This document shows positions 5,324-7,316 of a DNA stretch of 14,502 bases, in pieces. Each line of letters starts with the position of its first letter. Positions within the stretch are counted from its first letter, which is position 1. Position numbers and translations under genes: made by a program. This DNA is from a virus (Duplodnaviria > Heunggongvirae > Uroviricota > Caudoviricetes). The notes under the pieces are model-generated. The model searched no databases and had not been told where the DNA came from. It saw nothing but the letters and a program-made list of their open reading frames with translations. The stretch covers positions 1 through 14,502 of the IMG/VR virus record IMGVR_UViG_2667527959_000001, one strand, 5' to 3'.

Positions 5324-7316
5324 CGCAGATACGATTAAAGATTTCCTTGTTTCGCTGGGATTCGATATCGATCAGGCTGGCGCTAATAAGTTTGAAGCCG
5401 TGCTGAAAGGCGTTACCGCGAACGTTCTGAAGGTCGGCGCGGTGGTGGAAGGCGCAGCGCTGAGCATTGTCGGATTTACCACCCAGATCGCGAATGGTCT
5501 GGATAAAATTTACTGGGCATCCCAGCGGACGGGGGCCAGCGTCCAGGGCATCAAAGCGCTGGGCTATGCCGCATCGCAAACCGGTGCCAGCGCCGAGTCG
5601 GCTATGTCCTCCCTCGAAGGGCTGGCCGGTTTCATGCGTAGCAATCCGGGCGCGGAAGGCTTCCTGAACCGTCTGGGCGTACAGACCCGCGATGCCAGCG
5701 GAAAGATGCGTGATACTGCGGCCATCTTTACTGGTGTTGGGCAAAAGCTCAACAACATGCCGTATTACCGCGCGAAGCAATACGCGCAGATGCTCGGCAT
5801 CGATGAAAACACGCTGATGGCGATGCGCAGAGGGATGGGGCAGCTCAGTTCTGAGTACGCGTTGACGGCAAAGCGTATTGGTTTTAATGCTGAGTCAGCG
5901 GCTAAACAGTCCAATATTTTCATGACCTCCATGCGTAATCTGACGATGACGCTTGGACAGGCGAAAGACAAGATTGGCTCTAACCTAGCTGGTGGCCTTG
6001 CTGGCAGTATTGATAACTTCCGCAGGCAGATACTCGACAACTGGCCGAAGATTGAAGCGGTCATCACGAAGATCATCAAAGGAATTCTCTGGGCAGGTGA
6101 CGCGATTACCCGCGTGTTATGGCGAACTGGGCAAGCTGTTGAGGGTGTGATCGCCTGGTTCAAAAAGCTGAACCCAGCCACGCAGCAGCTTATCGCATTG
6201 TTCAGTGGGCTGTTGGTTGCATGGCGGCTGCTAAATACCGCTTTCATGTCATCACCCTTGGGCATGATAACGACGCTTATTATTGCACTTGGTCTGCTCT
6301 TGGATGATTACCAGACGTGGAAAGAAGGTGGCAAAAGCCTGATTGACTGGGGGAAATGGAAGACTGAAATTGATCAGGCCGTCAAAATGATTGGTGACCT
6401 GAAAAAGACTGTTACGGACCTGACAAAAGCGCTGGCTAAGTTGCTCGGTATTGACCCCAAGTCATGGTCCCTAAAGTGGGATTTTAGCAACTTCATTTCG
6501 CAAATGGGTGAGTTCGGCAAGATGCTGAACATGATCGCTGATTTGCTGAATGCCATAAAAGATGGCAACTGGGCGCAGGCCGCTAGTATAGGCAAACAGC
6601 TGCTAAATCAGGGCAGCGGGCAACCGAGTGCCACACCGGCAGTAGAGGATAGCGCCAACAGAAGCGCTGACTGGGTTAAGGAGAATCTGGGATTTGACCC
6701 GCGCAGCGTAGGCAGAACCATTCGCGGGTGGTTTGGTGATGATGAGCCTGACCAACATGCCCAGTCTGCTAAAGCTCCACGAGGTATTAGAAATAATAAC
6801 CCCGGTAATATCGACTTTCGTGGGCAATCTGGGGCGACGCTCGAAAGGCCTGGCGGCAGGTTCGCCCGGTTTGAAACTGCCTATGATGGCCTGAAAGCGC
6901 TTTCCCGACAATTAATGCGCTACTTTGAAGGTAAGACGACAGGCAAGCCGCTGCAAACCCTTAACGATATAATCTCTACGTGGGCACCGGGGAATGAAAA
7001 TAATACCGGTGCTTACATTGCTCAGTTATCGAAAATGATGGGTGTGGCTCCTGATGCCATTCTCAACCTTAAAGATCCGCAGGTAATGTCCTCTCTGATG
7101 AATGGAATTATCCATCATGAGAACGGGAGAAACCCTTACCCAAGTGAATTGGTTCGTATGGCCGCTGGTGGCGGTGCTTCACAAAACATACAGCAAGAAA
7201 CGGTTATTAATATTCACGGTGTATCTGATCCACGTGAGGCTGCCAATATCACAGTTGAGCGGCAGAAGAACGTTAATTCACAACTAACTCAACAACTTCG
7301 AACGGTGCCGAGCTAA
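5313..7316 (+). CDS. Tail tape measure protein
   Basis: 667 aa, preceded by GGAGAG (5301-5306). Alpha-helical Ala/Gln/Leu-rich N-terminal region, hydrophobic segments (ATQQLIALFSGLLVAWRLL...ITTLIIALGLLL) and a distinct C-terminal globular region. Canonical position after the chaperone. Confidence 0.85.
   Translation: MSGNADTIKDFLVSLGFDIDQAGANKFEAVLKGVTANVLKVGAVVEGAALSIVGFTTQIANGLDKIYWASQRTGASVQGIKALGYAASQTGASAESAMSSLEGLAGFMRSNPGAEGFLNRLGVQTRDASGKMRDTAAIFTGVGQKLNNMPYYRAKQYAQMLGIDENTLMAMRRGMGQLSSEYALTAKRIGFNAESAAKQSNIFMTSMRNLTMTLGQAKDKIGSNLAGGLAGSIDNFRRQILDNWPKIEAVITKIIKGILWAGDAITRVLWRTGQAVEGVIAWFKKLNPATQQLIALFSGLLVAWRLLNTAFMSSPLGMITTLIIALGLLLDDYQTWKEGGKSLIDWGKWKTEIDQAVKMIGDLKKTVTDLTKALAKLLGIDPKSWSLKWDFSNFISQMGEFGKMLNMIADLLNAIKDGNWAQAASIGKQLLNQGSGQPSATPAVEDSANRSADWVKENLGFDPRSVGRTIRGWFGDDEPDQHAQSAKAPRGIRNNNPGNIDFRGQSGATLERPGGRFARFETAYDGLKALSRQLMRYFEGKTTGKPLQTLNDIISTWAPGNENNTGAYIAQLSKMMGVAPDAILNLKDPQVMSSLMNGIIHHENGRNPYPSELVRMAAGGGASQNIQQETVINIHGVSDPREAANITVERQKNVNSQLTQQLRTVPS

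Follow-up and report, generated by a model that had tools for sequence, protein, structure and literature searches.

Does the C-terminal part of a phage tape measure protein (TMP) hold an enzyme that could cut the bacterial cell wall and, if so, of which family? The question is raised by a 14,502-nucleotide stretch of viral DNA (positions 1 to 14,502 of IMG/VR record IMGVR_UViG_2667527959_000001, referred to here as the window), in which an open reading frame (ORF) of 667 amino acids encodes the TMP. A first-pass annotation of this DNA had noted a change of character in the last ~180 residues, including a His-His-Glu cluster, and had suggested a distinct globular region with possible cell-wall-directed activity. 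The analysis presented here places residues ~488–620 by sequence in the Enc34 endolysin catalytic-domain family (PHA02564, PDB: 7q47). In all likelihood the domain is a virion-associated peptidoglycan glycosidase of this family that would cut the cell wall locally at entry, probably as a β-N-acetylglucosaminidase. The coordinates of all features are collected in Table 1.

The family assignment draws on sequence and profile searches. Among PDB sequences, the domain matched the catalytic domain of the phage Enc34 endolysin (7q47) with an E value of 8e-20 by phmmer and 6e-46 by profile, and Gp29 of phage E1004 (9vvp_L, deposited under 'core proteins') with E values of 2.5e-14 for a single sequence and 1e-43 for a profile. 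The similarity to the Enc34 family is significant over the whole domain of ~135 residues. The C-terminal fragment of the TMP also matched phrog_873 'endolysin' (E 5.5e-50) and phrog_7182 'tail injection transglycosylase' (E 6e-33). What the profile searches return is thus one particular lysin family, and not generic TMP or coiled-coil similarity. The first-pass opinion that the region could not be assigned to a known hydrolase family from sequence does not stand with respect to Enc34/PHA02564. When the C-terminal 207 amino acids were scanned against Pfam-A and NCBIfam, no match was obtained (Pfam E ≤ 1). The sole NCBIfam line for the whole TMP, blaFRI, was spurious at 13 bits. No publication on PDB 9vvp or phage E1004 turned up in literature searches.

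The family to which the domain belongs is very large: when 1.84 billion cluster representatives (clusters at 50% identity) were searched with the profile, 18,764 matched with E ≤ 1e-3 and 12,856 with E ≤ 1e-10. The members are found either as stand-alone proteins of ~140–250 amino acids or embedded within proteins of 500–1700 amino acids. The phage settings include chi-like endolysins, structural proteins of Mu-like Pseudomonas phages, the N-terminus of the K1F/EcoDS1-type gp16 'internal virion protein with endolysin domain', and a tectivirus-like phage as well as proteins named 'structural protein P5'. The latter name derives from P5 of corticovirus PM2, which was assigned earlier to the Enc34 fold with the same triad (PMC9502842). 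Full-length TMPs were not among the best 120 matches listed for the domain-only query and were recovered with an N-terminal query. With respect to activity, the Enc34 endolysin domain, itself a member of PHA02564, lyses E. coli, P. aeruginosa, and H. alvei when the outer membrane is permeabilised (PMC8943055), and the related M4Lys domain breaks down purified peptidoglycan (PMC7143992).

The C-terminal region consists of two units, and not the single region of ~180 residues first described: a domain of ~133 amino acids and a conserved tail of ~45 amino acids. Both motifs quoted in the first-pass annotation, RGIRNNNPGNI (residues 490–500, nucleotides 6780–6812) and HHENG (residues 601–605, nucleotides 7113–7127), lie inside the interval 6770–7150 to which they were ascribed. 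The reported shift towards Gly, Asn, and Pro is real in direction, 27% compared to 18% in residues 1–475; however, it is small and not significant alone, since the level was attained in 542 of 2000 shuffles. Composition was dropped as evidence for a domain, and the argument for a separate domain derives instead from homology and structure. The shuffles would by themselves suit a compositionally biased or disordered linker in which the motifs arose by chance; that explanation is refuted by the PDB match, the AlphaFold2 fold, the structural neighbours, and the profile search that revealed a large family.

An AlphaFold2 model of residues 476–626, built from a 55-sequence alignment, was mostly helical and confidently folded rather than disordered (mean predicted local distance difference test, pLDDT = 90.9). 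Together with the specific homology, the model bears out a distinct globular region. The fold is all-helical and resembles the α-lobe of lysozyme, as expected of a family with six helices and no β-lobe, and it is distantly related to the GH73 and GH23 enzymes. Where a distant structural neighbour of the model could be recognised as a cell-wall enzyme, it was a GH73-type glucosaminidase (8yxk, FlgJ, and LytB).

In Enc34, the position of Glu131 matches that of the catalytic Glu in GH73 and GH23 enzymes, with Trp79 and Tyr95 as conserved partner residues (PMC8943055). An HMMER alignment of the TMP domain to Enc34, through which the residues were counted, demonstrates that this Trp/Tyr/Glu signature is retained as W557, Y568, and E603. 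Across the 55 homologues Y568 and E603 are invariant and W557 nearly so (at least 90% conserved), which argues for purifying selection on the active site. H602 likewise reaches at least 90%, and H601 is not conserved. By sequence, the cluster is a predicted catalytic Glu with one conserved His and not a three-residue or metal site. A metal-binding or HExH-like role was rejected given the unconserved H601, the Glu-dependent glycosidase family, and the lack of a match to a peptidase family.

The strongest indication of what the domain does comes from its replacement in otherwise near-identical proteins. From a survey of 5,426 complete E. coli genomes, 37 contain the TMP gene, but in only three does the match span the whole gene. 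In the remaining 34 it runs from nucleotide 1 to ~1440–1460 or less and, where listed, these partial matches are annotated as 'transglycosylase SLT domain-containing protein'. In the allele from E. coli LR-33 (WP_032291542, 671 amino acids), residues 1–434 are near-identical, the linker at residues ~435–485 has diverged, and conservation resumes at IQQETxINIHGVSDPREAA and continues to the end. Between the conserved parts lies the Pfam SLT domain PF01464 (E 1.3e-24). The exchanged core has a GC content of 48.0% compared to 53.2% in both flanks, which would fit an origin in another genomic background.

The two cassettes have no detectable sequence relation. A profile of the Enc34-type domain aligned to the SLT cassette with an hhalign probability of 0.9%, and the SLT profile PF01464 did not match the C-terminal 207 amino acids of the TMP at E ≤ 1, so the domain gives no sign of GH23/SLT membership. 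Out of ~6,000 TMP homologues, the 120 protein clusters closest to residues 1–475 were inspected, and identity in this part is at least 97% throughout. The Enc34-type module is present in 17 of them (667 or 664 amino acids, with names mostly from Citrobacter freundii) and the SLT module in 101 (670–739 amino acids, mostly 671 or 735); two are truncated. The SLT variants of 735 and 739 amino acids contain an extra insert of ~64 residues between RGWFGDDEP and the SLT domain, at window position ~6750; with this insert the slot takes at least three architectures. The tail of residues 626–667 is kept in the LR-33 allele and in the 671- and 735-residue SLT variants.

Two modules without detectable similarity in sequence fill one slot in one protein; this argues strongly for a common job, namely peptidoglycan cleavage, and the swap is strong evidence for a cell-wall-cleaving role at entry. 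The cell-wall-directed activity raised as a possibility in the first-pass annotation thus gains support from sequence, fold, and catalytic residues like those of the muralytic Enc34 ORF39 (7q47), together with the SLT replacement. The swap also bears on whether the domain could be catalytically dead and serve only as a structural or peptidoglycan-binding module in tail-tip assembly or anchoring. C-terminal regions of TMPs do take part in tail-tip assembly, as in the cork of P7-1 (PMC13338283), and the activity of the present domain is predicted. Nevertheless, one would hardly expect a purely structural part to give way to a domain without detectable sequence similarity, docking fits the separate tail of residues 626–667 better, as this tail is conserved with either enzyme cassette, and the catalytic Glu and Tyr are invariant and the Trp nearly so in the homologues. 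A dead module is thus very improbable.

A second alternative retains the entry-lysin role and changes the chemistry: the domain could be a true lytic transglycosylase that forms 1,6-anhydro-N-acetylmuramic acid (1,6-anhydroMurNAc). PGAP names the protein as such, the domain replaces SLT one-for-one, the structural similarity of Enc34 extends to the GH23 enzymes phiKZ gp144 and MltC, and a lone catalytic Glu is typical of lytic transglycosylases (PMC8943055). In contrast, the cell-wall enzymes recognised among the structural neighbours are of the GH73 and not the GH23 type, the Enc34 authors conclude that their enzyme is a β-N-acetylglucosaminidase (PMC8943055), the products of M4Lys were read as hydrolytic (PMC7143992), and no sequence relation to the SLT cassette is detectable, as described above. 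Transglycosylase chemistry is accordingly considered unlikely.

As a β-N-acetylglucosaminidase-like entry lysin, the domain may act as follows. The tail tube would enclose the TMP, whose C-terminus would lie at the tail tip; there the last ~45 residues would anchor the protein to the hub or spike, and the lysin domain would be positioned immediately above them. The assignment of residues 626–667 as a tail-tip docking segment is made by analogy: in Pam3 the TMP occupies the lumen of the tube and is attached to the baseplate (PMC9942802), and in Pakpunavirus P7-1 the C-terminal TMP residues build a three-helix cork that attaches to the tail spike (PMC13338283). Following sheath contraction and puncture of the outer membrane, the spike would be lost and the TMP would exit into the periplasm C-terminus first. 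The domain could then cleave glycan strands locally with E603 as the general acid, widening the murein mesh such that the tube and TMP reach the inner membrane. There, the hydrophobic segments may engage the membrane and help to form a DNA conduit; Kyte-Doolittle windows of 19 residues exceeded 1.6 at residues 293–311 and 310–331.

Several points weigh against this proposal. The muralytic activity and bond specificity of the TMP domain are predictions, the activity by homology. Among the relatives, readings of bond specificity differ: the Enc34 authors deduce a glucosaminidase from structure (PMC8943055), and mass spectrometry of M4Lys products was interpreted as glycosidase plus endopeptidase activity (PMC7143992). 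The RefSeq name for the TMP is 'lytic transglycosylase'. The proposal also requires 3–6 copies of a folded domain of 133 amino acids to fit in the lumen of the tube or hub. Finally, the C-terminus-first exit and the docking of the tail are modeled on other phages (P7-1, Pam3, T4, and T5).

Why both cassettes persist may be considered separately. MurNAc O-acetylation blocks lytic transglycosylases. Diversifying selection might maintain the two modules if switching cleavage chemistry permits entry despite peptidoglycan modification or periplasmic inhibitors, which may include host proteins of the Ivy/MliC/PliC type or prophage-encoded exclusion factors. The data show the swap and its frequency (17 compared to 101 of the best 120 clusters); this explanation for it is judged quite unlikely at present. 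If true, the TMP lysin module would be a determinant of host range or superinfection.

The first-pass annotation had also named the domain, if enzymatic, as a natural target for periplasmic exclusion factors like the cassette proteins of the window. No support was found for this pairing, as the ORF at 9303–9641 adjoins both types of TMP: it is conserved beside the Enc34-type TMPs of the E. coli G3/10 prophage and phage Omnitron and beside the SLT-type TMP of LR-33. This ORF probably starts with GTG at 9303 and has a signal peptide, and its AlphaFold2 model is a generic eight-stranded β-barrel (pLDDT = 84). The ORF at 9647–9967 is unique to the window among the three relatives compared, and it has no informative match. 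Together, the two cassette ORFs (9261–9967) have a GC content of 41.7%.

The identity of the TMP itself is firm. The profile of phrog_2276 'tail length tape measure protein' covers residues 1–666 at E 4e-238 in a PHROG scan, and a Pfam scan gave weak similarity to PF10145 PhageMin_Tail. The gene order agrees, with the TMP gene behind a frameshifted chaperone gene (PF21822) and before the Dit-like, plug, and hub genes; the flanking chaperone gene fixes the identity by context. RefSeq (PGAP) already holds the protein under the name 'lytic transglycosylase (domain-containing protein)', and PHROGs places it among the TMPs. A prophage gene of E. coli G3/10 is 99.4% identical to the TMP gene, and the nearest phage record is Citrobacter phage Omnitron with 97.8% DNA identity. 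More remote full-length relatives (52–60% identity) include those of Salmonella phage SEN34 and Klebsiella phage Mulock.

The window covers the genes for tail and baseplate in a prophage, the phage being temperate, with a contractile tail, and a myophage like SEN34 and Pam3. Its gene order was established from the RefSeq annotation of the G3/10 prophage in combination with the Pfam and PHROG scans. The chaperone gene has a canonical −1 slippery heptamer, A_AAT_TTT, at 5081–5087 close to its end which, along with the open −1 frame, is the usual chaperone frameshift of the G/GT type. RefSeq gives the frameshift extension as a coding sequence of its own, 'DUF6889 family protein'. Downstream, the tube initiator, plug, and hub are the tail-tip parts around the TMP C-terminus. 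The hub also resembled PF22759 E217_GP41 (E 7.7e-06), although the score of 25.7 bits is under the gathering cut-off of 27 bits.

Table 1. Features of the tape measure locus, in positions of the window.
Feature	Position	Strand	Basis or remark
Sheath, DUF3383	3095–4255		
Tube, DUF3277	4266–4706		
Tail assembly chaperone	4710–5135	+	PF21822 Phage_TAC_15, E 4e-33; directly upstream of the TMP region
Chaperone gene including −1 frameshift extension	4710–5323	+	−1 frame open to 5323, overlapping the TMP start
TMP gene, 667 amino acids plus stop	5313–7316	+	phrog_2276, gene order
Hydrophobic, transmembrane-like TMP segments, residues 293–331	6189–6305	+	Kyte-Doolittle
DNA identity to LR-33 allele	up to 6572		92–100%, almost all 100%
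Linker, diverged 5' flank of the exchanged module, residues ~421–480, ending in the common RGWFGDDEP	6573–6752	+	68–87% DNA identity to LR-33
Exchanged cassette core, unalignable with the SLT-type allele	6753–7212	+	22–50% column identity to LR-33; 100% in flanks
Enc34-type (PHA02564 / PM2 P5-like) domain, predicted peptidoglycan glycosidase, residues ~488–620	6774–7172	+	
W557 codon, equivalent to Enc34 Trp79 (substrate positioning, PMC8943055)	6981–6983	+	TWAP compared to RWAP
Y568 codon, equivalent to Enc34 Tyr95 (PMC8943055)	7014–7016	+	Alignment
E603 codon, equivalent to Enc34 catalytic Glu131 (PMC8943055)	7119–7121	+	IIHHENG compared to IIRHENG
Conserved C-terminal tail, residues 626–667 (IQQETxINIHGVSDPREAA...)	7188–7313	+	Common to Enc34-type and SLT-type TMPs
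DNA identity to LR-33 allele	7213–7332		73%
DNA identity to LR-33 allele	from ~7393		100%
Tube initiator, Dit-like	7316–7918	+	PF21821, E 8e-31
Baseplate plug, Pam3-gp18-like	7920–8225	+	PF22479 Pam3_gp18, E 2e-25
Hub	8228–9292	+	phrog_196 baseplate hub, E 1.5e-83
Spike, baseplate J, fibre genes	after hub		

From this study, a formerly unassigned region becomes a specific enzyme domain whose key residue is predicted to be E603 and not the whole His-His-Glu cluster. Both the enzyme family and TMP-borne lysins were already known; an Enc34-type domain within a TMP was not found described in the literature, where a search combining Enc34 with tape measure proteins returned only genome reports. No SLT similarity underlies the RefSeq label 'lytic transglycosylase', a probable misnomer that may give the wrong chemistry. 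There is also a gap in annotation, as a family of ~18,800 clusters at 50% identity with a crystal structure yet gave no match here in Pfam-A and NCBIfam. The part most worth following up is the SLT/Enc34 cassette polymorphism. With a near-identical pair of TMPs that differ in the lysin cassette, nature has provided a system for studying the role of a TMP lysin in a contractile-tailed phage of Gram-negative hosts, and the same pair suits the question of whether the class of enzyme matters.

The Hafnia phage Enc34 endolysin ORF39 (PDB: 7q47) and M4Lys of Salmonella phage BSPM4 are stand-alone endolysins of lysis cassettes which have a C-terminal two-helix membrane domain and act from within at the end of infection. 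In contrast, the present domain sits near the C-terminus of a virion TMP and would act from outside at entry. The SLT alleles of the LR-33 type share the TMP architecture and the position of the enzyme module; their module is a GH23 lytic transglycosylase (PF01464) without detectable sequence similarity to the present domain and probably with a different chemistry. Sit of phage P1, likewise the TMP of a myophage, has its SLT domain close to the C-terminus (residues ~750–900) and is regarded as the source of the wall-digesting activity missing from the P1 spike (PMC9024508).

The Sit-like 'tail injection transglycosylase' of Escherichia phage D6 (YP_009914717, phrog_7182) is a myophage TMP with an Enc34-type domain, found at residues 691–815 with 41% identity to the present domain and with no Pfam SLT. 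In this P1-like TMP of 1260 amino acids the domain occupies part of the middle third and reads KEGG where the present TMP has HENG, with the His that precedes the catalytic Glu exchanged for another residue. The 'transglycosylase' annotation of the D6 protein was inherited from P1. Between these P1-like phages, an exchange of Enc34-type (D6 Sit) and SLT (P1 Sit) modules is seen independently. The same family serves as a virion-borne entry lysin in the N-terminal domain of K1F/EcoDS1-type podophage gp16-like ejectosome proteins, in E1004 Gp29 (9vvp), and in PM2 P5 (PMC9502842). The podophage proteins are carried inside the capsid and PM2 P5 in a membrane-containing tailless virion, and neither resides in a tail tape measure. 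Peptidoglycan hydrolases that are borne on a TMP and aid passage through the cell wall are represented by the Rpf-like motif of the mycobacteriophage TM4 TMP and by the C-terminal muralytic domain of T5 Pb2 (as cited in PMC13338283). These lysins of siphophage tails have catalytic folds unrelated to that of the present domain.
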